Of a stretch of DNA of 35,367 nt, positions 1,940 through 25,588 are shown in pieces. Location of the stretch: assembly GCA_030706285.1 (NCBI GenBank), contig JAUZOU010000003.1:1-35367 (forward strand), written 5' to 3'. Under the pieces are notes generated by a model that saw only the letters and a program-made list of their open reading frames with translations, was not told the origin of the DNA and searched no databases. The stretch's first letter is position 1. Each line of letters opens with the position of its first letter. Origin of the DNA: Bacteroidota bacterium. GTDB taxonomy: Bacteria; Bacteroidota; Bacteroidia; Bacteroidales; UBA1402. The translations under genes and the position numbers were made by a program.

Positions 1940-1979
1940 TTCAGTTAGGTAAAAGTTTCGGGTCACTCCAGCTGACCTT

Positions 1980-4415
1980 TCAAAGTGTCGCCACCACATG
2001 GCAGATACTACCGGCCGGCTTCAGTGGAATGCGGTTGCCCTGCACAGGCTCTCCGTCTACCGTCAGGCTGCGGAGGCCTTTCATACGCCCATCCGGATTG
2101 TTCACCCGGATGTGGTAGGTTGCTCCGCGAAATTTCCTTGTGACGGTGTATCCTTTCCAATCGGGAGGAATGCAGGGATTCACTTCCAGACTTTCGTAAT
2201 CGGGTTTAATACCCAGGATATACTGGGAAATAGCATAGTAATTCCACGCAGCCGTACCGGTGAGCCAGGAGTTCTTAGCCTCACCGGGCCGAAAAGCATC
2301 TTTTCCGGCTATCATCTGGGCGTACACATAGGGTTCAACTTTATGTAGGTCGCTGTGAGCCTCGGTATAGGAAGGGCATATCTTGCGGAAGTATTCCCAG
2401 GCGCGGTCTCCCCTGCCCTGCATTGTTTCACCGATGATGATCCAGGGATTGTTGTGACAGAAGATGCCGGCGTTTTCTTTATACCCGCCTGGATAGCTGG
2501 ATATTTCTCCGTATTCAATGTAATAACGGGTATATGGGGGATTGTTGAGCACGATGCCGTGCTCACAGTCCAGACGTTTCTTTACGGCATCGAGAGCCTT
2601 GGAGACCATACCTTCCTCCATTCCGATACCAGCCATGGTACACCAGCCATTTGATTCGATGAAAATCTGACCTTCCTCGTTTTCCTTCGATCCGATCTTG
2701 TTGCCGAAATAATCGTAGGCCCGGAGAAACCATTCGCCGTCCCAGCCATATTGCTTAATCGCTTCGGTCATAGCATAGACCTGACGCTGGGCACGTCCGG
2801 CTTCCCCGTTCTTGCCCAATTGAAGGCAAAGCCCGGCATATTCACGTCCGTAAAGCACGAATTGGCCGGCAATCATCAAACTTTCGGCCTGACTACCTTC
2901 CGTCTTGTTTTCAGTCGTCTGAAAACTCTCGTCAGGGTCATTCGAAAAGCAGTTCAGGTTGAGGCAGTCGTTCCAATCGGCCCGGCCGATCAAAGGCAAA
3001 CCGTGTGGGCCAAGATGATTCGGCACATAGTCGAAAGAGAGCGTCAGGTGCCGGAAGAGCGAAACCTCAGTGCCAGGTGTGTTGTCGAAAGGGACAGGTT
3101 CATTCAGAAGGCTGAAATCACCAGTTTCCTTGATGTAGCTGATGGTGCCGATGATGAGCCATAAGGGGTCATCGTTGAATCCCTGTCCGATCTCATTGTT
3201 GCCTTTCTTGGTCAACGGTTGATATTGGTGATAACATCCTCCGTCCGGAAATTGGGTGGAAGCGATATCGAGGATTCGTTCCCTGGCACGCTCTGGTATT
3301 TGATGGACAAAACCGATCAAATCCTGGTTGGAATCGCGGAATCCCATGCCACGTCCGATACCACTTTCGAAAAACGAGGCGGAACGGGAAAACAGGAAGG
3401 TAATCATACATTGGTATTGATTCCAACAATTGACCATCCTGTCCAACCTGGGTTCATCCGATTGAAGCGTAAAGACAGTCAGCAGCTTGTTCCAATAGGC
3501 TTTCAGTTCCTCAAAGGCTGAAGTCACTTTCTCAACCGTATCAAACGCCTCGATGAGTGCCTTAGCCGGTTTTTTATTGATGACATTCTGATGCTCCCAC
3601 TTCTGTTCGTCTGGGTTTTCGACGTAACCCAACAGAAAAATCAGGTCCTTGCTTTGACCGGGAGCCAGCGTCACCTCCAGGCAATGCGAAGCGATGGGGG
3701 ACCAACCGTGAGCTACGCTGTTCCTCGGTGTACCATCCAAAACCACCTGAGGTTCATCAAAGCCGTTGTATAGGCCGAAAAACGTTTCCCTGTCCGTATC
3801 GAAGCCTTTCACCGGCTTGTTCACCGAATAAAAGGCATAATGATTGCGCCGTTCCTTGTATTCGGTCTTATGGTAGATGACGGAATCTTCCGTCTCAACC
3901 TCGCCGGTGGAAAAGTTGCGCTGGAAGTTTTCCATATCTGTGGCGGCATTCCACAAGCACCATTCGATGAAAGAGAAAACCTGAATGGTCTTGGTTGAAG
4001 TTCCCAGGTTCCGGAGCGTCAGGTGTTGCACCTCCGCTCTGGTTTTCAAGGGAACGAAATACAGCACCTTGGCCTCGAGTTCATTTTTGACACCCTTGAT
4101 GATCGTATAGTTCATCCCGTGCCGGCACTCATAACCGTCCAAGGGCGTCTTGCACGGTTTCCAGCCTGGGTTCCAGACATTTTCACCTTCCTTGATGTAG
4201 AAATACTTGCCGCCGCTGTCCATGGGCACGTTGTTGTACCGGTAACGGGTAATACGCCGGAACTTGGCGTCTTTATAGAAGGAATAGCCCCCGGCCGTGT
4301 TGGATATCAGGCTGAAGAAGTCTTCCGTACCCAGATAGTTGATCCAGGGCCAAGGCGTCTTCGGATCGGTGATGACATACTCCCGTCTTTTGTCGTCAAA
4401 ATGTCCGTACTGCAT
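1980..4415 (-). CDS. cbp: GH94 cellobiose phosphorylase
   Basis: 811 aa. The N-terminus [35 protein letters not shown] and [11 protein letters not shown], together with [12 protein letters not shown], catalytic ADWNDCLNL and [12 protein letters not shown], match characterised cellobiose phosphorylases. Cytoplasmic. Confidence 0.92.
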
Positions 4416-4425
4416 AATCCATCTT

Positions 4426-5835
4426 TTAGCTATTTCTGTCTTTGGTTGTCATTTGTCTGGCTTCGGTAAGTTCCGAGCTGATTTTCTTCAAACGCTTTTC
4501 ATTGAGCGGATACAGGGCCATACACAAGACACCGATGGCGGCTCCGGCTGCCGGGAAAAAACTCAACATCATACGAATTCCTTCCTGTGCAAACTCGGTC
4601 TGGGCCACATTGGCCTTAAATCCGTAATAGCCTAGCAACCAGCCACACATGGCGCCACCGATGGTCCAACCGAATTTTTGGGACATGGAAGAAGCGGAAA
4701 ATACAAGCCCGGTGGCACGATGTTTCGTCTTCCATTCGGAATAGTCCGCCGAATCGGCATACATGGACCAGATGAGCGGTAACGTGGTGCCGACACTCAG
4801 GCTGATGAGGAATTGGAGAACGTATATTTGGGTGACATTTCCACGATCAATGAAATAGAAGAGGATGCTCAATGCCCCGCAGACAACCATGGCACTCAGG
4901 TATGTTCCTTTTTTGCCGATGCGGTTGGCAAACGGTACGGCCAACATAACGCCGATGATGCTGGCGGCCTGGCCGATGACGAAATACAGCGTACTCAGGG
5001 TGATGGTGAGGTTGAAGGCGGCGATGTGGAAAGCATCCTGCGTAAGCACGTAATATTTGAAGTAGTAGATTGCCGCCCCGTCACGGATGGAATTGAAGAA
5101 AATGACGGCGATGCCGGCTCCCAGTAAAATCCACCACGGCGAATTTTGCAGCAGGTCTTTCAGGTCTTGCCTAAGTGAAGTCTTTTCTTTCATGGGCCGG
5201 ATGCGCTCCTTAGTCCAGGAGAAGCAAAGGAAGAAGAACAAGATAGCAACCAGCGCAAACAGGACGGCAGCCAGCTGCCAGCCCAACCGTGGGTTGTTTC
5301 CTCCTCCCAGCTTGCTGAAGATACTGACGACGGGCTCCGCAGCGGCCAACACCAACAGGCTTCCTCCGTAGGCAAACACCATACGGTACGTGGACAACGA
5401 TGTCCGTTCCTTGCCGTCGTCGGTCATAACGCCCATCAACGAAGCGTAAGGCACATTGATGAGGGAATAGACCATCATCATGAGCGAATAGGTAACATAC
5501 GCGTAAAGGATCTTTCCGGTAGGTTCCAGGTCGGGTGTAGAAAAGGTAATTACTCCGATGATACCGAAGGGAACCATCACCCACAGCAGATAAGGACGAA
5601 ATTTACCCCATTTTGTTTCTGTACGGTCTGAAAGCACGCCCACGAAAGGGTCGAAGGCGGCATCCCAGATACGGGTAACCAAAAACATGGTGCCTACTAC
5701 GGCAGCGGAGATTCCGAATATATCGGTATAGAAAAACATGAGATACATGGAAAACAATTTCCAGAACATGGAAGCGGCAGCATCACCGAATCCATAACCG
5801 ATTTTTTCTTTCAAACGAAGCTTGGGAACTACCAT
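4426..5835 (-). CDS. GPH-family (MFS) glycoside:cation symporter
   Basis: [45 protein letters not shown] and [10 protein letters not shown], with many hydrophobic helices. Likely start ATG 5835 (MVVPK). Confidence 0.92.
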
Positions 5836-5920
5836 AGGTCTAGTCGAATAGTTGTGTTTATTTTCTAACAAGAACAGCTTAATTGATTGATCGTTGTAAA
5901 ACAATCCAAAAGGGGACACT

Positions 5921-7129
5921 TCATGGTATCAGTTTCAAACAAAGCACGTCATGAGCCGGGATGATCGCTTTCAGCTGTTTACGGGTGCCGCCGGCGTTTT
6001 TCTTCCTCCAGACATCGCGGGCCTTGTAAAGGGTTTTCCCCGTATCAAGCACTCTTCCGGAAAGAGAGTCGGTCACCGAAAATGTTTTCCAGTCAAGCTC
6101 CCAATTTTTTGGCGACGTACTACGATTCAGGAAGCAAATAGCCCATTCACCGTTAGTCAAGGGTTTCAGCCAGGTTTCCACACTGTCTTTCACCTGATGG
6201 CGGAATCCCTGGATACCCAAAGAATCCTGGTCAATGGAGATCAAATCTTTGTTGGACAAGATGTCGTAGGTCTCGATGGTCATGTTCCGAAGGTCGTTGC
6301 CTGCCATCAGAGGGGCAGCCAACAGGCACCACAGAGTGAAATGGGCCCGGTCTTCGTTCACAGGCATGCCGTTTCCGACTTCAAGCATGTCGGGATCGTT
6401 CCAGTGCCCGGGGCCGGCATAGACGCGCAAGCCGTCCTGCATGTCCACTATTTGCATGACACCCCAGGAATTCCAGGTGTCCCATTTTTTCACACAATCG
6501 AAGCAGTTGTAGATGTCACCGGTGGTACGCCACAGATGGCCTACGTCCCTGGCCCAGGTCCAAGGCTTGCTTCCTCCCCACTCACATAGGCTGAACACGA
6601 TGGGGCGGCCGGACTCTTTCAGGGCCCTGCTCATGGTGATGTAGGCTCCTTCCGCATTCAGCTTTTCGGTGAAACACCAATCGTATTTGAGGTAATCCAC
6701 TCCCCATTTGGCATACATGAGCGCATCCTGGCATTCATGCCCGCGACTGCCGGGATGTCCGCCGCACGTCTTGTCACCGGCACACGAATAAAGGCCAAAT
6801 TTCAGCCCTTTCGCATGGATGTATTCGGACAAAGCAGTGATGCCTGAAGGAAAGCGTTCGGCATTCGCGGTGATGAAACCTTGTGCGTCCCGTTCTCCTT
6901 GCCAACAGTCGTCAATCACGATGTATTCATACCCGGCATCTTTCAGGCCGGAGGCAACCAACGCATCTGCCACTTCCCGGATCTTGGTCTCGTTGACATC
7001 GCAGCCGAACTTATTCCAGCTGTTCCACCCCATAGGAGGAGTTAGCGCAAGGCCTTCGGATTTTTGAGCCTGCAACGGCATTATAAGTAAAAAGAATAAA
7101 ACGGAAGTTATTATTCTTTGTTTTTGCAT
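5921..7129 (-). CDS. GH27 alpha-galactosidase, Sec signal peptide
   Basis: TPPMGWNSWN, IDDCW, YLKYDWC (nucleophile), WRTTGDI (acid/base) and WNDPDMLEVGNG. Signal peptide ends LQA|QK. Confidence 0.95.
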   Translation of the reverse strand: MQKQRIITSVLFFLLIMPLQAQKSEGLALTPPMGWNSWNKFGCDVNETKIREVADALVASGLKDAGYEYIVIDDCWQGERDAQGFITANAERFPSGITALSEYIHAKGLKFGLYSCAGDKTCGGHPGSRGHECQDALMYAKWGVDYLKYDWCFTEKLNAEGAYITMSRALKESGRPIVFSLCEWGGSKPWTWARDVGHLWRTTGDIYNCFDCVKKWDTWNSWGVMQIVDMQDGLRVYAGPGHWNDPDMLEVGNGMPVNEDRAHFTLWCLLAAPLMAGNDLRNMTIETYDILSNKDLISIDQDSLGIQGFRHQVKDSVETWLKPLTNGEWAICFLNRSTSPKNWELDWKTFSVTDSLSGRVLDTGKTLYKARDVWRKKNAGGTRKQLKAIIPAHDVLCLKLIP

Positions 7130-7140
7130 GGCATCAGGTA

Positions 7141-8316
7141 TTAGAGATGGAGTTGCTTATTTTTGGCTATCAAAGCCTTGACGGATGCCACCGAAGCAGC
7201 GGAACGAAAACCGTCGGCCGGTGTATTCAGACAATAGTCCAACAGCTTTTCCACGGTAGAGGTGGCCACATGCATGCGGGTATCGGAAGAGGCATAATAA
7301 ATGAAGACTTTCCCATCTTCGTCCGCTATCCATCCGTTGGAAAACAAGACGTTGGACACATCCCCGGTACGTTCGTCACCCTCTGGTGCCATTAAGTATC
7401 CGGCCGGTTCCGCCAACAACTTGGCCGGATCCTGCAAATCCGTCAGATAAAGATACAATACATATCGCAATCCTGCAGCACAATTTCGCACCCCATGCGC
7501 CAAATGCAGCCAACCTTGGTTCGTCCGGATGGGATGAGGTCCCTCCCCGTTTTTCAATTCCTTTATTGTGTGATAGTTACGATGATTGATAATGATTTCC
7601 TCATTCACGGAAGCATGGCTGATGTCATCTACCAGCGCCCAGCCGATGCCGCCACCTTTCCCTGTTTCGATGAATCCTTCCTGTGGACGGGTGTACAGTG
7701 CATACTTGCCGTCTACGAACTCAGGATGCAACACGACGTTCCGTTGTTGGCTGCCGGAGATCAGGTCAGGCAGCCGATGCCACGTTTTCAGGTCTTTTGT
7801 GCGGACGATGCCGGCAGCAGCCACGGCGGAGGACAAGTCGCCCGCCGGAGCGGCAGGGTCTTTGCGTTCGCTGCAGAACACGCCGTAGATCCAGCCGTCC
7901 TCGTGTACGGTCAGACGCATGTCATACACGTTCGTATCTGGATTTTCGGTCTCGGGTATGGTACAGGGTTCATCCCAAAAGCGAAAGTTGTCGATGCCAT
8001 TGGGACTTTCGGCCACGGCAAAAAAAGATTTGCGGTCATAGCCCTCCACTCGCACCACTAACAGATACTTTCCTTGCCATTTGACAGCTCCGGCGTTTAG
8101 GGTAGCATTGACTCCGATGCGTTCCAATAAATAAGGATTGGTCTTCGGGTCAAGATCGTATCGCCATTCAAGGGGGACATGCGCTGCAGTGATCACCGGA
8201 TGTTCATACCGTTCGAAAATACCGTTTCCGGCTGTTTCTACAGGGCTATTTTTTCTGGCGATCAAGCGTTCGTGGTCAGCTTTCAATTTTTCCAAAGCCA
8301 TCTTGAAGTCTGTCAT
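7141..8316 (-). CDS. mgp: GH130 4-O-beta-D-mannosyl-D-glucose phosphorylase
   Basis: 391 aa. [24 protein letters not shown] (catalytic Asp), [17 protein letters not shown] and [12 protein letters not shown] match the GH130_1 type. No signal peptide. Confidence 0.93.
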
Positions 8317-8334
8317 ATTGTTCTGTTTTTAGGG

Positions 8335-11300
8335 TCAATATTGGATATCAGCCGTCGAGTAAAGATCTGGCAGATCCTCACTCAGCCAAATTTTACGGGA
8401 TTGAGTGAATCGTTTAAAATCGTTCGCTGCCGGATGTCCGGCATAAGGCACATAAAAATGATGTTTCAGGGAAGCGGCATACGCATTTCTCCAAAGCAGG
8501 ATATAGCTGATATCGAACGGCTCGATCAAAGGAGCCAGCACATTGGTGTAAAAGTCAGGGATCAGAATGCCTTCCAGACCGGTCTCGGCCAGGACGGGTA
8601 TTTTTCCGGTTTTGCGTGCATAATCGGTCACTGTCCGAAGACCTTCGCTCATTCGTTGACGATAATCAGCCACGGACCGGTCCGTCTTGTCCCAATGCAG
8701 GTAGAAATCAAAACCGACCACGTCGACCCACTTGTCTCCAGGATAATAAGTCAGGAAGTCGGCCTCTTCTTTTACGTCGTTCGGCGAAAAGGCATACAAG
8801 AGTTGATGCACCTGCCGGACATCGCGCAGATACGCCTCGGTCATGCGGTAAAGGGCCTTGTATTCTTCGGGCGTGCATTGACGGGAGCCCCACCAAAACC
8901 AAGTCCCGCTCATTTCGTGATACATCCGGAAAATGACAGGGATGGGCTTTCCGTCGGCCGCTTTAAGACTGAAGAAAAAATCGGCTAGCCGGTCAAGCCT
9001 TTTCAGATAAGCCTCATGATGTACACCTCCTGGCAGGATACTCCGAACAACAGTATCCTGGGCACAGTCCCAGGCATCTTTGCCGGTGGCGATGTTGAAG
9101 GCATGGAAACTGACCGTATTGACCGAACCCCGGTCGTAGACTTCGCGCATCAGGCGACGCATGTCGGTAAAGGCAACAGAATCCAGATTCCTGCCGGCAC
9201 CTACGTCCAGACCACCCAACTCCCAACCTACAACGGCCGGATAGTCACCTGCCGTCTCCTTAACATCAGACCGTCCGGATTCGTTGAACCAGTTGTGTCC
9301 ATAGGCCGGATCGTCCTGATGGCCAAATAGGATGCCCTTGCCCAGGCTTTTTCGAAGATTCGCAAAAAGCGCTTTGGTCCGGTCCGTGGCCAATGAGTCG
9401 GCTATAACAGGTTCCTTTGAAAGCAAAGAGGCATATTTTTTGATTAACGGCACGGTCTGATCGACGTTAAAGACCGAATTCAGCCCTTGTTCTTCTTGCG
9501 CCGGGTCTCCCAGATAATCGTCGCCGGGTTGCCAGTACAGATGGCGGGGTCGCCCAAACCCACCCCAGGCCCAAATGTTGCAGCCTGCCAAAACGCCGTC
9601 TGTGGCAGATGACCGGAGAATGCGTTCAAAAGCGGACTGATAATAGGCATCCCGGCAAACCGTCCCATCCGTCGGTTCGTACCGGTGATGATCTCGCGGG
9701 AAGCCGAATTCTTCGAGGACGATGGGCTTTTGAAGTTTTCTGGCCACCGCTTCATGTTCTTCCATGTAGGCAACGGTGCTGTCCACGCTTTTTCCCAAGG
9801 AACCCGGAATGTCTTTCACGTCAAGCCAGCTCCAGTTTTTGGGCCAGATGTGCATGACCAAGTAATCGATGTTCGGGTCGGCATGGGTCTCTTCAAACAG
9901 CTTGAGGTCTTCCTCGCAACCGTGTTTTCCTTCGGTCCCGATCGTGACCAGGTGATGGCAGTCGAGCGATTTGATGTAGGCGGAAATGTCGCGGAGCCAA
10001 CGAGAAAATGCCGGTTTGCCCTCTTCCGAAAAAGCACGCGGCTCGTTACCGATTTCCCAGGCAAAAATAGCCGGGTCTTCCGTATATTTCCGGCCATTGT
10101 AGCAGTTTTGGCGCTCCAGAACATGACGAATATGATGTTTCAATAATTCCGTGCAGCTGTCACAAAAGGCATATTGTTTGACAAAATTCAGGTAGGCCGG
10201 CCAACCATCAATATTGGGGATGGGCGCTTTTCCCTTGCCCGCCCATTCCAGGTATTGCCCGTATCCACCGGACCATTCCCAGGCATTGGTAAAAAAGAGC
10301 ACCGCCTTCATGTCGCGTTTTCCCAGTTCCGACAATAGAAAATCGAGTCCGTCAAAAATGGAATCGTTGTACACACCTGGTTTCAGCTGCAGGGTCGGCT
10401 CTACTTTCGTCGGCACTCCATTGGGACCGTCCGCCCCGATGAGCACGCGCAGGTTGGTGATGCCGTTCGCCTTCATCAGGTCTAGTTCCCGCAGCAACCG
10501 GACACGGTCACCTCCTCTCCCCGGCGAACCGAGGATGGCGCCATACCAGAAATTGGCACCAATGAAGCGATACGGCCTTCCGTTAATTACAAAATGGCAG
10601 CCTTGCTTCTGGACAATGCCTTGGGGCTTCTTCGCATCGTTTTCGGAGGCAATCACGGTAAACCTCGCAATCAACGAGCCTGTCCGAACCTCGAAATCAC
10701 CGGGTTCAAGCGTCTGACGGTTTTCGGAGTCGATGAAGCTCATCTCTTTCGGAGTCAACGTAAAGGTGACAGTCTTGGTTTCTCCCGAATTCAGACTGAT
10801 TTTGTCAAACCCTTTCAACCTACGCTTATCGGGAGCGAGGGAAGCCACCAGATCGGATAGGTAGAGCAGGACGGCCTCCTTGCCTTGGAGCTTCCCCGTA
10901 TTGGTGACGTCCACCGACACCTCCAGATTGTCCCCGGCCCGCACAGTCGTAGAAGACAGCCTCAGCCGGTCATAGCGGAAACTGGTATAGCTCAGGCCTG
11001 TCCCAAACTCCCATTGAGGAGAATAATCGGATTCATAGTTATACATACCTTCGGCCTTTAGTTGTTCCTCTGCATATTTATGCCAATCCGGAATGAGAGA
11101 CTGCGGATAGCGCGGATAGTTAAACGGAAGTTTGCCACTCGGATTCACAGCTCCGCACAAAAGGTCAGCCAAGGCATCAGCCCCATAATTTCCCGGAAGA
11201 TAGGTCATTAGAACGGCTTTCATATCCTTCTCGAAACGGCTGATGATGCGCGGACGTCCTTCGTTAAGCACCAGCACGATAGGCTTGCCTGTAGCAACCA

Positions 11301-12912
11301 ATCGCTGCGCCAACTGTGTCTGCAGGTCCGAAAGATAGAGGTCCTGCAAATCGCCGGGCTTTTCCGCGTAACTGTTCTCACCGAGGCAAAGCACCACGGC
11401 ATCGACGGAAGCGGCAGCTTTGACGGCTTCATCCATGTTATCTACCGTTTCCTCCCAATACTTGCCACCTTCCACATAACGGACGCCCGGCACGTAGGTC
11501 ACCCTGTCGCTCCCGAATGTCTGTTGCAACGCTTCGAGTATGGTATGATAGGGTTCCGTAAAACGGGGCGCTTTCTCACCTTGCCAAGAGTAGGACCAAC
11601 CGCCGTTGAGGGCACGCATGGAATGGGCATTCGGACCGGTCACCAACAAACGAATCCCTTTTTTGAACGGCAGCACACCATCCTCGTTTTTTAAAAGCGT
11701 AATGGCTTCTGCTGCGGTTTCACGGGCTTTCGCCTGATGGGCAGCACTGGCAAATTCCGGATAATCCTTTCGGTCATCCCAAGCCTTGTCAAAAAGGCCA
11801 AGCCGCTGTTTTAGCTTCAGTATACGCCGTACGGCATCGTCGATACGCGTCATGGAGACACTTCCTTCGTTGACTAGTTCGATCAGATCGTCACAGAACC
11901 GGAAGTCGTAGGGTATCATGGACATGTCAATCCCTGCATTGACGGCCAAACGGACAGCATCCTTGCGAGAGGAAGCCACGCGATCTCTCCGGTAAAGATT
12001 CTCAATATCGTTCCAATCGGTGACGACCACCCCTTCAAATTTCAGCTCATTTTTGAGCAAATCAGTTATGATGCGTTTGCTGGCATGAACCGGTTCACCA
12101 TTGATAAGGCCGGAATTGACCATAATGGAAGAAAGACCGGCATCGACAGCCGCTTGAAAAGGAGGCAAGTGATATTCCCTAAGTACAGGATCCGGAATGC
12201 TGGCCGGAGTCCGGTCTTTGCCCGAAACCGGCACAGAATATCCCAGATAATGCTTGGCACATGCCGCCAGATGCAGACCGTCGATGTCAGGTCCCTTCGA
12301 GCCCTGATAACCGTGTACCATTTCGGTACCCAAAGCTGACACCAAGTACGGATCTTCCCCGAAAGTCTCCCACAGACGAGGCCAGCGGGGATCCACTCCA
12401 AGATCCAATACCGGTGAAAAGTTCCAGGGTAAGGAACATGCACGGGTTTCATAGGCAGACATTTCAGCGCAAGCTCTCACTAACTGACGGTTAAAAGTGG
12501 CCGCCTGTGCTATTTGTTGTGGAAACATCGTCGCACCTTTAGTATAGGTCGCCCCATGGATGGCGTCGACCCCATAGATCAACGGAATTGTCAACGGTGT
12601 CTTCCGTGTCTGTTGTTGAAGTAATTTCACCATCCGGTTCCATTCTTCCGGGCTATGGGCCACATTGTCCCATGTGTTCAGCACCGATCCGATGCGATAG
12701 TCCACGATGCCTTTTCTGATCATGGAATCAACCGGCTGATAAGTTTTCTGGTCCACAAAAACATCAATGGTCACCTGAGCCATCTGTCCGACCTTTTCCT
12801 GCAGACTCATCCGTTTCAGCAACGCCTCAACATCCACTGATTGCTGAGCAGACACCATAATGGGCGTCCATAGAACCGCCAACAAGGAGAGCATATGAAT
12901 AGGGTTTTTCAT
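8335..12912 (-). CDS. Trimodular glycoside hydrolase: GH3 (+Fn3-like) - GH5_7 - GH26, Sec signal peptide
   Basis: GH3 at about aa 25-755 (GVDAIHG, ETFGEDP, KHY, VVTDW, PSGKLP). GH5_7 at about aa 765-1165 (GANFWY, WEIGNEPR, LEEFG). GH26 at about aa 1170-1520 (FGHQDD, RMYHEMSGTWFWWG, YYPGD, LAETG). One continuous ORF. Confidence 0.92.
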   Translation of the reverse strand: MKNPIHMLSLLAVLWTPIMVSAQQSVDVEALLKRMSLQEKVGQMAQVTIDVFVDQKTYQPVDSMIRKGIVDYRIGSVLNTWDNVAHSPEEWNRMVKLLQQQTRKTPLTIPLIYGVDAIHGATYTKGATMFPQQIAQAATFNRQLVRACAEMSAYETRACSLPWNFSPVLDLGVDPRWPRLWETFGEDPYLVSALGTEMVHGYQGSKGPDIDGLHLAACAKHYLGYSVPVSGKDRTPASIPDPVLREYHLPPFQAAVDAGLSSIMVNSGLINGEPVHASKRIITDLLKNELKFEGVVVTDWNDIENLYRRDRVASSRKDAVRLAVNAGIDMSMIPYDFRFCDDLIELVNEGSVSMTRIDDAVRRILKLKQRLGLFDKAWDDRKDYPEFASAAHQAKARETAAEAITLLKNEDGVLPFKKGIRLLVTGPNAHSMRALNGGWSYSWQGEKAPRFTEPYHTILEALQQTFGSDRVTYVPGVRYVEGGKYWEETVDNMDEAVKAAASVDAVVLCLGENSYAEKPGDLQDLYLSDLQTQLAQRLVATGKPIVLVLNEGRPRIISRFEKDMKAVLMTYLPGNYGADALADLLCGAVNPSGKLPFNYPRYPQSLIPDWHKYAEEQLKAEGMYNYESDYSPQWEFGTGLSYTSFRYDRLRLSSTTVRAGDNLEVSVDVTNTGKLQGKEAVLLYLSDLVASLAPDKRRLKGFDKISLNSGETKTVTFTLTPKEMSFIDSENRQTLEPGDFEVRTGSLIARFTVIASENDAKKPQGIVQKQGCHFVINGRPYRFIGANFWYGAILGSPGRGGDRVRLLRELDLMKANGITNLRVLIGADGPNGVPTKVEPTLQLKPGVYNDSIFDGLDFLLSELGKRDMKAVLFFTNAWEWSGGYGQYLEWAGKGKAPIPNIDGWPAYLNFVKQYAFCDSCTELLKHHIRHVLERQNCYNGRKYTEDPAIFAWEIGNEPRAFSEEGKPAFSRWLRDISAYIKSLDCHHLVTIGTEGKHGCEEDLKLFEETHADPNIDYLVMHIWPKNWSWLDVKDIPGSLGKSVDSTVAYMEEHEAVARKLQKPIVLEEFGFPRDHHRYEPTDGTVCRDAYYQSAFERILRSSATDGVLAGCNIWAWGGFGRPRHLYWQPGDDYLGDPAQEEQGLNSVFNVDQTVPLIKKYASLLSKEPVIADSLATDRTKALFANLRKSLGKGILFGHQDDPAYGHNWFNESGRSDVKETAGDYPAVVGWELGGLDVGAGRNLDSVAFTDMRRLMREVYDRGSVNTVSFHAFNIATGKDAWDCAQDTVVRSILPGGVHHEAYLKRLDRLADFFFSLKAADGKPIPVIFRMYHEMSGTWFWWGSRQCTPEEYKALYRMTEAYLRDVRQVHQLLYAFSPNDVKEEADFLTYYPGDKWVDVVGFDFYLHWDKTDRSVADYRQRMSEGLRTVTDYARKTGKIPVLAETGLEGILIPDFYTNVLAPLIEPFDISYILLWRNAYAASLKHHFYVPYAGHPAANDFKRFTQSRKIWLSEDLPDLYSTADIQY

Positions 12913-12918
12913 AACAAC

Positions 12919-14670
12919 TTACATTCCGAGTTTCTTTTTGAAAAAATCCATGTGCAGATCGTTCCATTCCACCGGGGTTCCGTGTCCCTGTTCACGGTAT
13001 ATCCGGTACTGTTTTTCCGATCGGATCAGATTATAACCGACAAAATTGGTGTGATTCGGACAAACCTCATCCTGCAATCCGGCAGCCATCAATATGGGAC
13101 ACTGGATCCATCCGGCCAGGTTCTTGATGTCGAAGTAGGTCAGTATGTCGTATACCTGTTCCCAAGTCTTGTCCGGATGAAGGGCGAGATAGGTTTCGAA
13201 GGCGCTGCGGGGCCAGCTCACAATCCGGAAATAGTCGCGGTAATCGGACAGGAACGGTACGGCCGGAGCAGCAGCCTTGATGCGATGGTCCAGAGCACAG
13301 GCAGCCAACGTGAAGGCTCCACCTTGGCTTCCACCTTCGGCAACAATCCGATCGGCGTCCACTTCAGGACGAGAAACTAGGAAATCCACTCCACGCACCA
13401 GATCCATGAAGGCTCCACGGTAGTAGTAGTTTTCCTTGCTATCCAGCCCCCAAATGAGCCAATCGCCCCAGAAATCTTTCTGGATGGCCTTCTGGATACC
13501 CTGCCCACGCACGGAAAGCACAAAGCTGGCAAAGCCGGGTTCACCGTCGGTGAGCGGATACCAAGGTTCGGAACCATACCCCATATAATAGATGATGGCC
13601 GGATACTTGCCGGGAGTCTTGGGCACAGCGTAAAAGCCTTCGATGGTGAGCTCCCCGAACGACTTCATCCACACATGATAGATGTTTCGGGCACCGGTGG
13701 ACCGTTCCGGAATGAGTTCCATCCGGTATTCCGGATTCACTTTTTTCAGTTCGACCAGCGATTGCTTCCAGAAGGCTTCAAAATCGGGCTTGGCATCGAC
13801 GGGAGAGACAATTTTTTCAGGTTCGTATCCGATGTTGAATTTTTCGACGTTGCCGATGACCCCCTCTTTCTCAACAAACAGGGTACAGCGGTAAAAACCG
13901 GGAGTGGGCAAATGGAAAGGCACGTTGGCGGAAAGACTGGCTCCTGGTTTCAGCGTAAAGGACCGGACGATACTGTCCACCGGTGCATACATGTCGGTCT
14001 TCAGCACCAGCACCACATTGAATCTGGCATTCTCCCGAACCGTATTTTTCAACGACAACGTCATTTCCTGTTTTTGGCCCTGCATGAATACCCATTGGTC
14101 GGCCGGAAAATCCCATTGCAGCTTGATGGCATCTGTAACACCCAAAGGACGCACCAGCGTATGGTCCGTTATCAGGCCGCCCCCTCCTACTCCGTCGTAG
14201 ACACGAACAGCCATGACATTGGGCCGGCCGAAAAGGACATAGCCGGCAGGGACGACATACACTCGCTTCTGACCGTATTTGCTGACATATTCCGGCGGCA
14301 TTCCACCCGTTACTCCGATGCGACGGCCATTGAAATAAAATTCATCGGCATCGTCCGCATTCGTATACCGTATCATGATGCCACCATATTTCTGAACCTG
14401 TGCTTTCAACGTCTCAGGCAAGACGACTTGCTTACGGTACCAACCGAAACCGTCCCGGTCTGGAAAGCCTTGGTCCTCCCAACATTTGGAGGAGCTGATG
14501 ACCTTCCATTCACGATCGTCCAAACTGGGAGAAGCGCCATCCGGCTGGTCACCGATGGCGAACTTCCATTGGTCGTCAAGCACCAGTTCGGAAAATTGTG
14601 CCTGCGCTTCCAACGTCTTTCCGACATTAAGCAAACAGACGAAAGAAAGTAGTATGAGCATTCGTTTCAT
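12919..14670 (-). CDS. CE7 acetyl esterase with an N-terminal jelly-roll (GH2_N/galactose-binding-like) domain
   Basis: CE7 hallmarks RGQ, GGSQGG (Ser), GLQDEVCP (Asp) and EQGH (His). The N-terminal WKF..GD...DD.EW...GWYRK...DDADEFYFNG..IG...N..AVRVYD domain is extra. Likely start ATG 14670 (MKRML). Confidence 0.88.
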   Translation of the reverse strand: MKRMLILLSFVCLLNVGKTLEAQAQFSELVLDDQWKFAIGDQPDGASPSLDDREWKVISSSKCWEDQGFPDRDGFGWYRKQVVLPETLKAQVQKYGGIMIRYTNADDADEFYFNGRRIGVTGGMPPEYVSKYGQKRVYVVPAGYVLFGRPNVMAVRVYDGVGGGGLITDHTLVRPLGVTDAIKLQWDFPADQWVFMQGQKQEMTLSLKNTVRENARFNVVLVLKTDMYAPVDSIVRSFTLKPGASLSANVPFHLPTPGFYRCTLFVEKEGVIGNVEKFNIGYEPEKIVSPVDAKPDFEAFWKQSLVELKKVNPEYRMELIPERSTGARNIYHVWMKSFGELTIEGFYAVPKTPGKYPAIIYYMGYGSEPWYPLTDGEPGFASFVLSVRGQGIQKAIQKDFWGDWLIWGLDSKENYYYRGAFMDLVRGVDFLVSRPEVDADRIVAEGGSQGGAFTLAACALDHRIKAAAPAVPFLSDYRDYFRIVSWPRSAFETYLALHPDKTWEQVYDILTYFDIKNLAGWIQCPILMAAGLQDEVCPNHTNFVGYNLIRSEKQYRIYREQGHGTPVEWNDLHMDFFKKKLGM

Positions 14671-14677
14671 AGCTGAC

Positions 14678-16411
14678 TTATTTAAGATTGGGCATTTGAT
14701 CACGAGTCACCACATAATCGTAGCTGAAGAACTTGTTCCACCAAGCCGCGCCGTTATGGCTGTCCGACTCCGTGTAATAGCCGTTCCATGGCATAAAGTA
14801 CGACCACATGTCACCATAGGCTTTCATGGACGCCGGATCAGGCACGGAACCACATTCGCTGAGCGTGATCAGCTTTCTGCCTCCGAATAGTTTCCGGATC
14901 CGGTTAAAAGAATAATACTGTGAACCGTGTTGATTTTCACCGGGATAGATATCCATACCGATCAAGTCTACATACTCGTCACCCGGATACCAATCGACAG
15001 TAGAAGCATTCGCATCACTAGTCCAGACCCAAATCAGATTGTTGAGGCCATGCACGTTGGTGAAGCGATTGAACATTAGTTTCCATAATGTCTTGAAGGG
15101 AACCGGACCTTTGGCACCCCACCAGAACCAGGTACCAGATGCCTCGTGCAACGGCCGCCAGAGCACCGGTATGCCGGCATCGCGAAATTGTTTCAGGTAA
15201 CCGGCTATCACATCAAGGTCAACGATCATAGCCTGGTACTCATTGGACGTCGTATCCGTCACATTGGACACGTCGAACGTGGTTCCGGATGGCTTCGAAG
15301 AGGAATACGTGTACATCGAACCCGATTTGGTGAGCGGATCGCGCCAATGCCACATCAGCGCTACCAGGCCGTTGTTGTTCCACCAGTCGGCGCCCAGCGT
15401 GAATGGAGCGGAATAGTTCACCCAATTCTGGTTCGGATTGGTATGGTCAACGAAGTCGAAGCAAGTCAGCGCCGGCCATTTGCCGGTATGCTCATGTACC
15501 CAAGTGGCTTCCGTAATATTGGTGCTGTATGCCGCCATCGTCCCAGAAAGTACCTTGCTCCCAAAATTTCCCTTCAGAAAATCGTAGACTCGAACAGCCT
15601 GTGACGATGGATTCGGGGTGACCAACGATGCGGCAATCCGGAAGGGAGTCAATCCGGCTGAGTCGTAGGCCAACGTCACGTAATCATAGTTGGTCCACCC
15701 CCAGTTCTTGACCAATGACAAACTATGGACGCCGGCGGTGAGGTAGATCTCACCCGCAGAAAGGGTCGTCCAGAAAGACACCGCCTCAAAGGACAATGTG
15801 CAGATCAAACCATCATCCACATACAGATCGTTTTGCTTTGCACTGGACATGGTATGGTAGCGCACCGTCAACCGATAATAGCCGTCTTGGTCAGCCTGGA
15901 CGCTAAAGGTCACATTCCCGTCTCCTGAGCTGACGTATCCAGTTCCGGAATAGCCGTTCAGGCTGGTTGCGACAGCGGCAGAGCCTGTCAACGTCGCCTT
16001 TTCCGCTTCAAACACAGTTCCTTCCGGAGCAATGCCTTTGACGGTCTTGAACGGCAGTAAAAGGCTTTTGTTGTAATTTCCGGCATCGTCGTAAAGAGTT
16101 CCGGCCGGAATTTCAAGGATATACGAAGTGTTGCCCGTCAACTCCGTGTCGATGGTCAGCTTTTGGTAAGAAAGTGCCGCCTTCACGACCTTTCCGTTTA
16201 GGGTAATCTGAGGATTGTCTATAAGATAAAATTTTTCGGAGAATTTCAATTCCAGGATCGTGCCTAAGGCTACGGCTGTGTCGCCCGGTTCCGGTGTACT
16301 GCTCGTCAAGGCTGGGCCCTCTTTGTCGCCGTCATTTTCAGGCTTGCAGTTGGTTAAAAAGAGCACCAAAACAAACAGGAAACCCCATCGGAAGGCTTGT
16401 TTTTTGAACAT
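14678..16411 (-). CDS. Lipoprotein endo-beta-mannanase: Ig-like (Big_5-like) - CBM35-like - GH26
   Basis: Lipobox LTNC. Ig-like ELKFSE...Y.LEIP. CBM-like FEAEKA..GYSGTGYV..NWGW..YDY. GH26 motifs WHWR, WRPLHEASGTWFWWG, WYPGD and LSECG. Likely start ATG 16411. Confidence 0.9.
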   Translation of the reverse strand: MFKKQAFRWGFLFVLVLFLTNCKPENDGDKEGPALTSSTPEPGDTAVALGTILELKFSEKFYLIDNPQITLNGKVVKAALSYQKLTIDTELTGNTSYILEIPAGTLYDDAGNYNKSLLLPFKTVKGIAPEGTVFEAEKATLTGSAAVATSLNGYSGTGYVSSGDGNVTFSVQADQDGYYRLTVRYHTMSSAKQNDLYVDDGLICTLSFEAVSFWTTLSAGEIYLTAGVHSLSLVKNWGWTNYDYVTLAYDSAGLTPFRIAASLVTPNPSSQAVRVYDFLKGNFGSKVLSGTMAAYSTNITEATWVHEHTGKWPALTCFDFVDHTNPNQNWVNYSAPFTLGADWWNNNGLVALMWHWRDPLTKSGSMYTYSSSKPSGTTFDVSNVTDTTSNEYQAMIVDLDVIAGYLKQFRDAGIPVLWRPLHEASGTWFWWGAKGPVPFKTLWKLMFNRFTNVHGLNNLIWVWTSDANASTVDWYPGDEYVDLIGMDIYPGENQHGSQYYSFNRIRKLFGGRKLITLSECGSVPDPASMKAYGDMWSYFMPWNGYYTESDSHNGAAWWNKFFSYDYVVTRDQMPNLK

Positions 16412-16450
16412 AAAGGAATTGAATGAAAAAATGATAAACGAATCCTTTTC

Positions 16451-16485
16451 GAATGAGGAGCGTTCCGAAGAACAACTCCCCATTC
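16451..16485 (-). other. Intergenic RNA hairpin with cUUCGg tetraloop
   Basis: The mRNA-strand sequence GAAUGGGGAGUUGUUC-UUCG-GAACGCUCCUCAUUC forms about 15 bp including two G-U pairs and one bulge. No U-tract follows directly. Confidence 0.7.
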
Positions 16486-16524: not shown

Positions 16525-18633
16525 TTATTTCGGATCAAAGCGCATGTTGTCAAAACACAGCCCTGCAAAATCCGTTCCGGCATCCGAAGAATTCAGGACG
16601 ATACCAAAATTACCGCTGCTAAGGGTCGGATTCGAAAGCTTTCCGGCTATAGGTATGGTTAATGTAGCCCATTCTCCACCTGTCGTGATGTAGTCTCCAT
16701 TGACGATAAGCTGAGAAGAAAGGGTCTCGCCGCCGATCATGAACTGAAACTCATAATTGCCCGTGATCTTGATGGGCGTCGTTGTCTTGATATCCACTTT
16801 GAACACATAATTGTCAGAGTTTACGGAAGGCCAGCCACCGTTCGGATCAGGATGGTTGCATCCAAGCACCCACCAACCCGGATGTGAGACCAAAACGATA
16901 TAGCCAAGGGCCTTACAAGCGGCAGCATCATATGAACTGCCCCAGTTATCCCAATCGACAGCGTGCCAATCGGTGGTACGTACGTTGAAATCATAAATCA
17001 TCTTGGTGTCAGCCGTTATCGGATCCGTACCGGACACGGTAAATTCCGGAGAAACGACTTCGCTCCCGTCATACGCTTTCAACGTCAAGGTAACCTTGCC
17101 GTTTTTCGCATTCGTCGGGACATACACTTCCAGTTTGGTAGAGGTACGGTCACCATAGTCGGTTGCTGTGACGCCATTCTGGAATACGACATCCCTGACC
17201 AGATGGAGCTTGGTGCCGGTGATGGTCAACAATGCTCCAGGTTTGACAATAAATGTGATGCTAGTAATAACGGGTTTGTTGGCTGCCGAGAGCGTCAATT
17301 CGTCGGTCGATTCCACCAGATCTCCGTTCTTTGCGACCAAGGTGATCTTGCCGGAAACGGCCGCTGTCGGAGTCGTCACTGTCAGTGAGGTAGAAGAGGC
17401 CGGAATCGCGTCAACGGAAAGGCCACCGCCAAATATGACTTGCTTGACAAGGTCCAGATTAGTACCGGTGATGGTAATATCACCTCCCGCGGTCAAAGAA
17501 AGCGGAGCAATAGTTGCAATGGCCGGCTTAATAAAGGTCAGGTTGGCACTTTCAGCCGTTTGACCGGATTTGGTACTGAGGACGACTTTGCCCTCAACCG
17601 CTGTTTCGGGAACCGTGACACTAATGGAAGTGGCTGTCTGAGTCGTGATGTTTCCCGTTTTACTTCCGCCGAACGTCACGGTAGTGGCCAGATCGAGGTC
17701 TGTACCGGTGATCGTCAGCGTTTGTCCGCTCTTGACCGGATTCGGAGCTATGCCAGTGATGACGGGAGCCACTAGTTTCAGATCTTCTGATGATTGTACT
17801 TCCACTTGAGAATAAGCCACCAGCTTGAACCTTCCCACTTTGGCAGCAGCCGGGACCTTCACCGTGAACGACGTGTTCGACCTGGAAACAAAAGTCGAAT
17901 CCACCAGGTTGTCTGCGAAAATCACCGATTTGATCAGCTGAAAATCGGTACCAGATACCGTCAGGTTCTCACCCGGTTTTACAGGATTGGGGCTCATGCC
18001 GGTCAAGGCCGGCAGCGTAACGGCGACGATCGTGTCTGAATAGACCAGAATGGGTATTTCCTGCCCATTGGAAATGATAATCTTGCCGCTCTGTGCTTCC
18101 TTGGGCACCGTCACCTTGATCTGGTAGCGGGTCTGGCTGTTGAAACTGGAGCTATCTACAACGATGTTGTCGTTGAAAATCACCTGTTTGATGAGGTTCA
18201 GATAATCACCATTGATCGTAAACTCATCACCGGCCTTGATGGTAAGTGGGGTAATACTGCCAATGGAGATTGGCTCGGAAAACGATAAATCGGTCTTTGT
18301 CAAAATATCCCCGTCGGGGGTTTTCAACGTGATTTTGCCAGGCTTGGCATCCTGCGGAATCACAATCTTGATCGTGGTAGGACTGATGACTGTGATGACC
18401 GTCACTTCGATGTTTTCGGGTAGAATAATGGCCGTCACCTTGTCCAGGTTCAAGCCGATGAATTCCAATTCTCCTCCGCGCAAAGCCGGACTCGGACCGA
18501 ACACCTTGAGCTCCACTTTCTCGGAAGCTTCATTCGTGGTATCGCACGATGTGAGGGTCAAACTGCCCAGCAAGAGGCAAGCCATGAGACCTGCCGTCAT
18601 ATATTTCAAAAATAGTTTTCGCATAATGGTCAT
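16525..18633 (-). CDS. Surface glycan-binding lipoprotein with six IPT/TIG repeats and a C-terminal binding domain
   Basis: Lipobox LTSC. Six ~83-aa repeats with a core like T(I/V)xGx(D/N)LxL..V.F. Trp-rich C-terminal domain ending CFDNMRF. Second gene after susD. Confidence 0.85.
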   Translation of the reverse strand: MTIMRKLFLKYMTAGLMACLLLGSLTLTSCDTTNEASEKVELKVFGPSPALRGGELEFIGLNLDKVTAIILPENIEVTVITVISPTTIKIVIPQDAKPGKITLKTPDGDILTKTDLSFSEPISIGSITPLTIKAGDEFTINGDYLNLIKQVIFNDNIVVDSSSFNSQTRYQIKVTVPKEAQSGKIIISNGQEIPILVYSDTIVAVTLPALTGMSPNPVKPGENLTVSGTDFQLIKSVIFADNLVDSTFVSRSNTSFTVKVPAAAKVGRFKLVAYSQVEVQSSEDLKLVAPVITGIAPNPVKSGQTLTITGTDLDLATTVTFGGSKTGNITTQTATSISVTVPETAVEGKVVLSTKSGQTAESANLTFIKPAIATIAPLSLTAGGDITITGTNLDLVKQVIFGGGLSVDAIPASSTSLTVTTPTAAVSGKITLVAKNGDLVESTDELTLSAANKPVITSITFIVKPGALLTITGTKLHLVRDVVFQNGVTATDYGDRTSTKLEVYVPTNAKNGKVTLTLKAYDGSEVVSPEFTVSGTDPITADTKMIYDFNVRTTDWHAVDWDNWGSSYDAAACKALGYIVLVSHPGWWVLGCNHPDPNGGWPSVNSDNYVFKVDIKTTTPIKITGNYEFQFMIGGETLSSQLIVNGDYITTGGEWATLTIPIAGKLSNPTLSSGNFGIVLNSSDAGTDFAGLCFDNMRFDPK

Positions 18634-18642
18634 TGTTTAAGG

Positions 18643-19881
18643 TTATTCAGCAGGTACCACACGAATGTTGTCAATGCAGATGTTCGGGGTACAGTCCGTA
18701 CCTTTCACACCACCATTGAAAACGAAGAAGGTCAAACCGCCGCAATTTCCGGCCGTGAGTTTACCGACTTCTGCTCCAGAAGCATTATACTTGAAATTTT
18801 TGAGAGGAATGGATACGGTGATCCAACCATTCGTCGTATAAGAGCCAGATCCTTCCCACGGGATCCATAGGCCTCTCGGATAAGTGGCATCTCCGACGTA
18901 ACCGTTCGTACCGGAAGTACTCCAAGACGTAAAAATCATCTGGAGGGCTCCGGCAGACCAGGCCTGCGTCACATTCACCTCAAATTTCAGTACGGCATTT
19001 TCCACCGGAATGGAGAAAAGGTCTCCTTCCGGACGTCCGTTGGATGTCCCCCATAGGTTGAAAGCAAAAGCATCCTCATTCCAGGTTTCACCGGCACCAC
19101 CTTTCATCGTTCCTGTAAAGCGTACGTAGTTTCCGGTGATGCCCGTCGGATTGGTATTGGCAATGACACCGCTACGCCAACCACCTGAGGCATTGGTATT
19201 GTCCCAATCCAAAATCATTCCTCTGGAATCACGGAAACGGAAGGTAGAACGCGTGGAGCCATAACGGCTTTTCATGGTGATGGGGCCTTCGGTAGCGGCA
19301 GCCGGAACCTTGACGTTCAGTTGGGTTAACGTGTAAGACACGACTTCCGCCTTGATGTTGGGAGTAAAATAAACTTCCGGCACGTCAGAACCTGCTACGG
19401 AAAGGAAGTAATTGCCATTGATGGTGATGATATCTCCTGCATTGGCATATTCACACGTCAGGGTATTCAAGATCGGAGAAGGAACATCCACACCAAAATG
19501 ATAGGTCACGGTATCCTTATTCTTGTTGATCAGATAGATCTTGTTCGTCACATTGGTCGGGATGGTACTGGGTACGCTCAAAATCAAGACATCCGATTTG
19601 ATGAGACTGGAATTGAGTGTAGCCTGCACGTTGTTAAACCAAACTTCCTTCACACTGGTCATATTTTCACCAATGAGCGCAATAGTGGTTCCCATGAAAG
19701 CATGTGTCAACAGAGAATCGGAACTGAGAGCATCGGGCAGGCGGATATAATCCACCGTTGGTTCGCCACCCGTAATGACATATTCATCCGGATTATCGTC
19801 GCAAGCAGGCAAAGCGAATAACGTCAGCAAAGCCATCGCAGAAGCAACGATTTTCATGGTTGATTTCAATATATTTTTCAT
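18643..19881 (-). CDS. SusE-positioned surface glycan-binding lipoprotein (SGBP-B-like)
   Basis: Lipobox LPAC-DDNPDE. Two Ig/IPT-like domains, then a Trp-rich domain (LKFEVNV, GWITVSIPL, IDNIRVVP). Directly after susD. Confidence 0.85.
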   Translation of the reverse strand: MKNILKSTMKIVASAMALLTLFALPACDDNPDEYVITGGEPTVDYIRLPDALSSDSLLTHAFMGTTIALIGENMTSVKEVWFNNVQATLNSSLIKSDVLILSVPSTIPTNVTNKIYLINKNKDTVTYHFGVDVPSPILNTLTCEYANAGDIITINGNYFLSVAGSDVPEVYFTPNIKAEVVSYTLTQLNVKVPAAATEGPITMKSRYGSTRSTFRFRDSRGMILDWDNTNASGGWRSGVIANTNPTGITGNYVRFTGTMKGGAGETWNEDAFAFNLWGTSNGRPEGDLFSIPVENAVLKFEVNVTQAWSAGALQMIFTSWSTSGTNGYVGDATYPRGLWIPWEGSGSYTTNGWITVSIPLKNFKYNASGAEVGKLTAGNCGGLTFFVFNGGVKGTDCTPNICIDNIRVVPAE

Positions 19882-24930: not shown

Positions 24931-25008
24931 GGAATTAATTTTAGTATTAGAAAGGTAACTTAAGGTTTCTCGAACGTGTCATTTTCGAAATTGTGCTTTT
25001 CGACAGAA

Positions 25009-25016
25009 CAAAAATA
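25009..25016 (-). promoter_or_regulatory. Candidate Bacteroidetes primary-sigma -7 element for the PUL
   Basis: Minus-strand TATTTTTG matches TAnnTTTG about 80 nt upstream of the susC ATG. A TTTG also lies at 25031-25034. Confidence 0.55.
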
Positions 25017-25588
25017 AGACATAGATAATGCAAATAAATATATTTTTTTATCTTAAAGTGATACTTTTCCAACACCTATTTCGATGTATTAAGTATTAGA
25101 TCAACCATTTATCTTGTAAAAAAGGTATTGGGACACCTTTCATTCTATACCTTTCGATCTCTTTCAAATCAGTACGCAAAAAGCCTGTTCACCGAGATTT
25201 CAGCTATAGTGTCCGATAACTATTTTTTCATTGTTATCCGACTAAAATTCGAGAACTAGTCATCACGCAAAAGGGAGCCTTCCAAAATGAATTGGAAAAC
25301 TCCCCGATATGGCGAATTTGTTGTACCACCAACATTTAACCATTTGGACAAAAAAAGTGAAACAGCGTTTGCCGGACAGTAGTAATAAAGTATGCCAACC
25401 AGATAATCCTCTCCTTCTTTCTCTTGATAATAGCCATTTTCCGGTTTATAACCATTACCCGCAAACAAAGCCAATCAAAATTTGGATTAAGATATATTAA
25501 TAATTATCTATTATTAAATATACTTATAACTAATTCATGTAGGAAACCAAAGGAAAAAATTGCAGTTAAGGTCAAAGGTTGTCAGGCA

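Follow-up and report, generated by a model that had tools for sequence, protein, structure and literature searches.

The window analysed here is a stretch of 35,367 nucleotides (nt) from an uncultured Bacteroidota bacterium of sludge, of the order Bacteroidales (contig JAUZOU010000003.1 of assembly GCA_030706285.1). On its minus strand, at 8335-12912, it carries one uninterrupted frame of 1525 amino acids (aa), with an ATG start and no internal stops, in which three glycoside hydrolase (GH) modules of the families GH3, GH5 and GH26 follow one another in a single chain. This triple fusion gene is real and intact. Its product is probably a periplasmic glycosidase with three active sites that would complete the breakdown of (galacto)glucomannan oligosaccharides; the location, the substrate, the exo action and whatever advantage the fusion may bring are inferred.

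A single intact gene for three glycosidase modules

The open reading frame (ORF) is divided as follows.

8335-12912, minus strand: whole ORF, GH3-Fn3 / GH5 subfamily 7-type (GH5_7) / GH26 triple fusion, 1525 aa and stop
12847-12912, minus strand: signal peptide, residues 1-22, predicted signal peptidase I (SPI) cleavage after VSA (sequence reading, and alignment with those of GH3 orthologues that stand alone)
11812-12804, minus strand: GH3 N-terminal (beta/alpha)8 domain, residues 37-367 (Pfam PF00933, 242 bits, E 1e-71)
10987-11703, minus strand: GH3 C-terminal alpha/beta sandwich, residues 404-642 (Pfam PF01915, 144 bits)
10675-10878, minus strand: Fn3-like domain of GH3, residues 679-746 (Pfam PF14310, 65 bits, E 6e-18)
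10621-10656, minus strand: linker 1, residues 753-764, about 12 aa (alignment with split orthologues)
9433-10620, minus strand: GH5 (subfamily 7-type, CmMan5A-like) module, residues 765-1160 (solved-structure matches)
9412-9432, minus strand: linker 2, residues 1161-1167, about 7 aa (also present in stand-alone GH5-GH26 fusions)
8350-9411, minus strand: GH26 module (BoMan26A/CjMan26C-like), residues 1168-1521 (Pfam PF02156, 148 bits, E 4e-43, over residues 1172-1440)

An earlier note, made from the sequence alone, had described this gene as one ORF for GH3 with Fn3, GH5_7 and GH26, and the ranges it gave for them, equal to residues 25-751, 765-1165 and 1168-1521, agree with the domain matches. 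The junctions, which it had put at about 10 aa, are as short as was claimed. All of the catalytic motifs that it listed are found: VTDW (D299), NEP (E957), LEEFG (E1068), HE (E1333) and AETG (E1443). The Pfam matches to GH3_N, GH3_C and the Fn3-like domain all exceed their family cut-offs. The GH5 module was not recognised by the local copy of Pfam, which returned only a sub-threshold GH2_C match of 19.4 bits; the precomputed Pfam accession PF26410 is present on homologues.

The window's source genome (G000) is a draft metagenome-assembled genome (MAG) of 639 contigs with an estimated contamination of 5.26%, and its closest relatives within the genus, G001 and G005, have separate genes. These are the points in favour of an artefact, in which separate genes would have been joined by mis-assembly or by an indel error. 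An independent check was made by comparing positions 8000-13200 of the window with contigs from public runs of other studies, the samples being labelled as sludge and bioreactor metagenomes. A contig of 2099 nt from run X3 corresponds to 9320-11415 with 113 mismatches and no gaps, and spans both junctions; a contig from run X1 corresponds to 10544-10760 with 2 mismatches and spans junction 1 without a gap. Of the 40 differences listed for X3 (there are 177 more), 24 are synonymous and the other 16 alter a residue; there is no stop among them.

The architecture is also found elsewhere, with different linkers. In G008, of the same genus, there is an intact orthologue of 1502 aa, likewise situated between a CE7 esterase and a GH130 gene. 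A word-indexed protein search identified four metagenome clusters (P0002-P0005) with the same three parts, at 61-66% identity over 98-99% coverage and with lengths of 1502 to 1526 aa. A chance origin of the ORF is ruled out by the matches to three separate families at E <= 1e-85 and by the four full-length homologues. In addition, the internal signal peptide that a joining of separate genes would leave to be read through is wholly missing. An artefact is thus largely refuted and its probability is negligible. A flag of '1 TAA' had suggested an in-frame stop in G008, which is ruled out by the intact frame of 1502 aa; the TAA may be the stop codon of the gene itself.

Predicted activities of the three modules

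The six catalytic residues are conserved in all six of the fused proteins aligned and in every aligned split homologue.

The closest solved enzyme to the GH3 module is BoGH3B (5jp0), which matches residues 28-746 with an E value of 1.7e-237. D299, of the VTDW motif, and E517 align with its nucleophile Asp314 and its acid/base Glu534, and are kept in 14 of 14 aligned GH3 rows; W300 and W443 correspond to its Trp315 and Trp458. BoGH3B is described as a beta-1,4-glucosidase with this catalytic pair, in which the two tryptophans narrow the +1 site. The module has in common with BoGH3B the three-domain GH3 layout, the nucleophile, the acid/base and both +1 tryptophans. They differ in setting: BoGH3B stands alone in a xyloglucan locus of Bacteroides ovatus, whereas the GH3 module of the window forms the N-terminal third of a fused chain from a mannan locus.

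In a search of solved structures with residues 765-1160, the GH5 module matched CmMan5A of Cellvibrio mixtus (1uuq) at E 9e-101 and the exo-mannosidase of Rhizomucor miehei (4lyp) at E 4e-73, while the best endo-acting GH5 structure was far weaker at 5e-38. In another comparison, over residues 764-1160, the values for 1uuq and 4lyp were 5e-100 and 9e-73. It has the features of a clan GH-A barrel with an NEP acid/base and a nucleophile Glu. E957 (acid/base, NEP) and E1068 (nucleophile, LEEFG) align with residues 215 and 330 of the 1uuq chain, in agreement with the catalytic pair of CmMan5A, which we take to be E215 and E330. The alignment with CmMan5A has gaps of only 1, 4 and 2 residues. The assignment to subfamily 7 rests on these nearest solved relatives. 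CmMan5A is reported to be an exo-acting GH5_7 enzyme whose exo action is attributed to the lengths of three loops. CmMan5A and 4lyp are the top matches of the module by sequence and by fold, and both catalytic Glu are shared with them; these two enzymes stand alone, whereas the GH5 module of the window is part of a fusion and its exo action is predicted.

The GH26 module (residues 1168-1521) is most similar to BoMan26A (4zxo, E 1.2e-86) and CjMan26C (2vx4, E 1.2e-78), and matches to endo-acting GH26 of the CjMan26A type are weaker (about 4e-54 as against 1e-86 for 4zxo). E1333 (acid/base, HE) and E1443 (nucleophile, AETG) align with Glu-188 and Glu-292 of BoMan26A, so both catalytic Glu are kept. 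Roughly the first 205 residues of the alignment with BoMan26A are free of gaps, a stretch that is expected to include loop 2. CjMan26C is described as an exo-mannobiohydrolase. BoMan26A is reported to be a periplasmic enzyme with two glycone subsites that prefers oligosaccharides and yields mainly mannobiose. Both of these relatives are stand-alone enzymes, whereas the GH26 of the window lies within a fusion.

Taken over both CmMan5A and BoMan26A, the alignments have only small gaps, of 1 to 6 residues, which suggests that the loop lengths tied to exo-type clefts have been kept. The structure prediction that the earlier note had proposed was made with AlphaFold for residues 753-1525, from an alignment of 22 sequences. 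The model has two barrels joined by a confidently predicted linker 2 (predicted local distance difference test, pLDDT, of 82-90), and the residues of linker 1 are below 50. Its fold neighbours are the same enzymes as those found by sequence. The top Foldseek ranks went to CmMan5A, BoMan26A and CjMan26C, with template modelling (TM) scores on the target of 0.84 for 1uuq and 0.93 for 4zxo, and an entry titled BlMan5_7 was also among the matches. The release of glucose, mannose and mannobiose that had been predicted from the sequence alone therefore fits BoGH3B, CmMan5A and BoMan26A as the nearest characterised relatives, as well as the conserved catalytic residues.

The locus, the cellular location and the proposed pathway

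The fusion gene lies inside a tight minus-strand SusC/SusD locus for (galacto)glucomannan. Its neighbours are these.

21703-24930, minus strand: SusC
19993-21699, minus strand: SusD
18643-19881 and 16525-18633, minus strand: two lipoprotein surface glycan-binding proteins (SGBPs)
14678-16483, minus strand: Big_5-CBM35-GH26 mannanase
12919-14703, minus strand: AXE1/CE7 esterase
7141-8316, minus strand: GH130, no signal peptide
5921-7129, minus strand: GH27 alpha-galactosidase, with signal peptide
4426-5919, minus strand: MFS_2 sugar transporter
1980-4415, minus strand: GH94
716-1999, minus strand: 2-epimerase family
3-704, minus strand: GH5 lipoprotein, cut by the end of the window

SusC and SusD are 7-12 kb upstream of the fusion gene on the same strand. 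From susC to the last gene the intergenic gaps are -26 to 111 nt; the fusion gene and the GH130 gene are 18 nt apart, and the further downstream neighbours are separated by -20 to 11 nt. No regulator gene of the locus was found within the window.

Two ORF overlaps are present, of 20 nt between the GH94 and epimerase genes (1980-1999) and of 26 nt between the CBM35-GH26 and CE7 esterase genes (14678-14703). Long N-terminal extensions precede the signal peptides of the esterase and the GH26, and the true starts of both genes are therefore probably further downstream. Between susC and the gene for SprA, a protein of 2487 aa from the type IX secretion system (T9SS), there is a non-coding gap of 658 nt (24931-25588). 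The GC content is 0.38 at 25001-26000 and about 0.50 elsewhere in the window. The gap is probably the promoter region of the locus.

Published systems for glucomannan and galactomannan, namely PUL7/8 (polysaccharide utilisation loci, PULs) of Segatella copri, BoManPUL of B. ovatus and a dromedary-gut fosmid with CE7-GH5-GH26-GH130, are described as having the matching parts as separate proteins. Between them these accounts share with the window CE7, GH5_7, GH26, GH130, an epimerase, a transporter, an alpha-galactosidase, GH94 and a nearby GH3. For S. copri PUL7/8 and BoManPUL the order given is endo cleavage at the surface, periplasmic trimming to mannobiose and mannosyl-glucose, and then a cytoplasmic epimerase and phosphorylases. 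Those pathways have a separate protein for each activity, whereas in the window three activities, periplasmic by prediction, are on one chain.

By analogy, the neighbouring SusC/SusD pair would import (galacto)glucomannan oligosaccharides. The GH3 module, as a BoGH3B-like beta-1,4-glucosidase, would remove terminal glucose from the non-reducing end, and the GH5_7 module, as a CmMan5A-like exo-beta-mannosidase, would take off terminal mannose. The GH26 module, with its short glycone cleft, would release mainly mannobiose. Galactose would be removed by the GH27 and acetyl groups by the CE7 esterase. The MFS transporter may then carry the disaccharides into the cytoplasm, where they would be processed by the 2-epimerase and by two phosphorylases, GH130 and GH94.

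It had been claimed that the protein is probably periplasmic and that it has no carbohydrate-binding module (CBM), lipobox or T9SS C-terminal domain. The N-terminus has one signal-peptide-like segment, ending in VSA followed by QQ, with no Cys in residues 1-30, and searches of the fusion protein with Pfam and NCBIfam revealed neither a CBM nor a T9SS C-terminal domain. The lipobox Cys of a surface lipoprotein is not present, and the SGBPs and SusD of the locus do have one. The chain stops where the GH26 fold does, as in BoMan26A and CjMan26C. These negatives and the Cys-free N-terminus agree with the second claim, and together with the SPI-type signal they are consistent with the first.

A surface or secreted enzyme that attacks polymeric glucomannan is very improbable by comparison. 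The genome does encode a T9SS, with SprA at 25589-33052 of the window, secreted multicatalytic GH5-GH26 mannanases are reported from a member of the rumen Bacteroidetes, and some stand-alone GH5-GH26 relatives have a Cys-containing, lipoprotein-like signal. The fusion protein, however, has none of the sorting signals that such an enzyme would use, and its nearest characterised relatives are reported to work on oligosaccharides in the periplasm. Among the stand-alone GH5-GH26 proteins, a Cys lies at the end of the signal peptide in L011, L012 and L016 (and in L013-L015, L023 and L048), and there is none in G001/L021 or L017. Some lineages may have a membrane-anchored GH5-GH26 enzyme and others a soluble one.

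It is also very unlikely that one chain is made and then cut at its linkers after export, the fusion serving only for co-translation or co-export. In its favour, the fused proteins differ in both the sequence and the length of linker 1, and this linker is poorly defined in the model. Against this, both linkers are very short, linker 2 is conserved and confidently modelled, and there is no obvious protease site or sign of processing.

A number of points weigh against a periplasmic enzyme with three exo-acting sites. The exo assignment is drawn from nearest relatives and loop lengths, and the periplasmic location from the absence of other sorting signals. Published work indicates that most GH5_7 enzymes are endo-mannanases, that BoMan26A keeps some endo activity, and that BoGH3B comes from a xyloglucan locus rather than a mannan locus. 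The fusion protein reaches none of the NCBIfam equivalog cut-offs (453 bits for BglX, where 666 are required), so that the family of the GH3 module is clear and its exact specificity tentative. The model is moderately confident overall (pLDDT 80, predicted TM score 0.72). Constraint on the protein appears moderate from the 16 of 40 listed X3 differences that are non-synonymous, which is a weak indicator, and a search of sequencing runs listed no RNA run that contains the gene.

Several of these points would fit a real fusion in which one or more modules act differently, as an endo-acting GH5_7 or GH26 or as a GH3 for another beta-glycoside, so that the protein is a general enzyme cocktail rather than a set of three exo-trimmers working on one chain end. 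The same GH5 module is also joined to GH28, GH31, GH16, GH20 and GH29-GH3, which are not obviously mannan enzymes. This alternative is nevertheless unlikely. The exo-acting members lead by sequence and by fold, well ahead of the endo-mannanases, and the alignments to them are nearly gap-free. A separate GH26 of endo type, with a CBM35, is moreover encoded upstream.

Origin of the fusion and its place among multicatalytic enzymes

A total of 90 related loci were classified by BLAST with the three modules as queries. In 31 of them a GH5 gene is followed by a separate, adjacent GH26 gene; these are labelled Rikenellaceae, Rikenella, Lentimicrobiaceae, Tannerellaceae, Tenuifilaceae and unclassified Bacteroidales/Bacteroidetes. 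In 26, mostly from MAGs titled Paludibacter sp., one ORF, some 780-830 aa long and provided with a signal peptide, encodes both GH5 and GH26. A GH3 gene lies directly upstream of a GH5-GH26 fusion in nine loci. The triple fusion accounts for three loci but only two proteins, those of the window and of G008, the latter having been retrieved twice.

Within the genus of the window, the locus is present in 4 of 14 genomes, being fused in two (G000 and G008) and split in two (G001 and G005). No matches to the query at E <= 1e-60 were found in the other 15 genomes of the family. The loci of G001 and G005 are orthologous and syntenic, with GH3 and GH5-GH26 as two genes, the second of which has its own signal peptide. 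From the GH3 stop to the next ATG there are 7 nt in G001 and about 100 nt in G005. G005 had appeared as a fusion because of an 'open frame 1541', which is ruled out by the stop and the roughly 100 nt between the genes. In all six of the aligned fused proteins the signal peptide of the second gene has gone, leaving 5-13 poorly conserved residues at junction 1, and linker 2 is common to the triple fusions and the two-module GH5-GH26 proteins. The presence of the internal signal peptide in the split orthologues and its absence from the fused proteins bear out the suggestion of the earlier note that this is a trimmed fusion and not the loss of a stop codon.

A stepwise origin from neighbouring genes would account for these arrangements. 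GH5 and GH26 would have been joined first, and a later deletion would have removed the stop codon of GH3, the short intergenic spacer and the signal peptide that the GH5-GH26 gene had, a step that apparently took place more than once. The GH5-GH26 tree unites P0001-P0004 and the split G001, which is nested among them, in one clade (98% SH-aLRT), with P0005 on a long branch outside. In the GH3 tree, P0005 is separated from the other fused proteins and groups with stand-alone GH3 genes of Paludibacter-labelled MAGs (99% SH-aLRT), and split genes of the G005 type nest among the fused ones. The grouping of P0005 apart from the other fused proteins indicates at least two independent fusions. Within the clade of the genus there have been either further fusions or one fission. 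In an approximately unbiased (AU) test, a single origin, with P0001-P0004 held together as against the split G001, gave a log-likelihood difference of 15.6 and a p value of 0.040, a marginal result for a group that was defined post hoc.

The copy in the window has a long terminal branch in the GH5-GH26 tree (0.64, compared with a median of 0.13) and an amino-acid composition significantly unlike that of its relatives. A GH3 orthologue of 53-54% identity is found in the Dysgonomonas MAG L037, and also in L040. In L037 it is directly upstream of a separate GH26 gene, and a GH5 lies at a distance of a few kb, which places the GH3 among mannan genes outside the lineage of the window too.

Matches to residues 401-1525 were also sought in a library clustered at 50% identity, with 1.84 billion representatives. 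No GH3-GH5-GH26 protein was among the best 150 of 29,488 matches, the top one being a GH26-GH5 protein of 753 aa at 712 bits. The known fused proteins P0002-P0005 are not among the representatives, presumably since their clusters are represented by shorter members, so this search cannot count them. It suggests that a large and divergent family of fused proteins is unlikely.

The fusion is a rare variant of the established multicatalytic carbohydrate-active enzymes (CAZymes) of Bacteroidota PULs. Such enzymes have at least two catalytic modules in one ORF of a SusC/SusD locus, and here there are three. GH26 and GH5 are also found in one chain in PbGH26A-GH5A of Prevotella bryantii (6d2w), in a GH26/GH5_4 enzyme of S. 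copri and in a GH5-GH26 enzyme of 'Ca. Paraporphyromonas polyenzymogenes', all from Bacteroidota mannan systems. These bi-catalytic enzymes are reported to be endo-acting and either surface-bound or secreted by a T9SS, and none has a third, GH3 module. The GH5 of the S. copri enzyme is of subfamily 4, and the title of 6d2w calls PbGH26A-GH5A an endo-mannanase/endo-glucanase. Several catalytic modules per PUL-encoded protein are likewise reported for fused acetyl-feruloyl esterases and for CE15-GH8 of B. eggerthii. These multicatalytic CAZymes of Bacteroidetes PULs have two modules, usually an esterase with another esterase or with a GH, and the literature searches brought up no chain of three glycosidases.

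The earlier note did not recognise the architecture from characterised enzymes. This holds to the extent that the literature searches turned up neither a GH3-GH5-GH26 protein nor a GH5_7-GH26 fusion, but the architecture is not unique, being present in the genome of one other species and in four metagenome clusters. The known two-module fusions of the Bacteroidota are mostly esterases or surface endo-enzymes, and for three apparently periplasmic oligosaccharide trimmers in one chain no precedent was found in the papers searched.

It is possible, though doubtful, that the fusion has been selected because the three exo sites hand on the non-reducing end of a mixed glucose/mannose oligosaccharide without releasing it, as a periplasmic 'disassembly line' for a heteropolymer in which the next sugar cannot be foreseen. 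That related lineages have lost the intergenic region and signal peptide repeatedly and independently would then be a signature of its advantage, as would the parallel fusions of GH5-GH26 to GH27 or to an esterase. Close relatives carry the same locus as three genes, two genes or one, with the last step taken apparently at least twice, and this amounts to a natural experiment. A comparison of fused and split orthologues would show whether the linking of sequential glycosidases improves the degradation of a heteropolymer, a question that bears on how enzyme cocktails for mannan-rich biomass and prebiotics are designed. If there is no kinetic gain, this would be an ordinary fusion of operon neighbours.

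Other chains with several enzymes were seen among the homologues. P0027 (1149 aa) is a GH26-GH5-GH27 protein, the last module being an alpha-galactosidase. P0031 and P0032 (about 1145 aa) have an esterase (PF00756) followed by GH26 and GH5, with an additional CBM48 in P0032. All three are metagenome clusters whose three-enzyme chains use the GH5 and GH26 modules in another order. The CmMan5A-like GH5 module is a frequent fusion partner (P0021, P0025, P0024, P0052, P0058, P0059, P0061, P0063, P0076, P0139 and P0213), with a module identity of 40-58% in the eight of these proteins that were compared by BLAST. The combinations are GH5-GH3, GH28-GH5, GH5-GH31, CE7-GH5, GH16-GH5, SASA-GH5, GH20-GH5 and GH29-GH3-GH5 (1557 aa). 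Chains of GH3-GH26 without GH5 also exist. In P0245 (1282 aa) a sodium:solute symporter domain (36-440) is followed by a complete GH3 with an Fn3-like domain (569-1270); this is either a transporter-glycosidase fusion or an artefact of gene calling or assembly.

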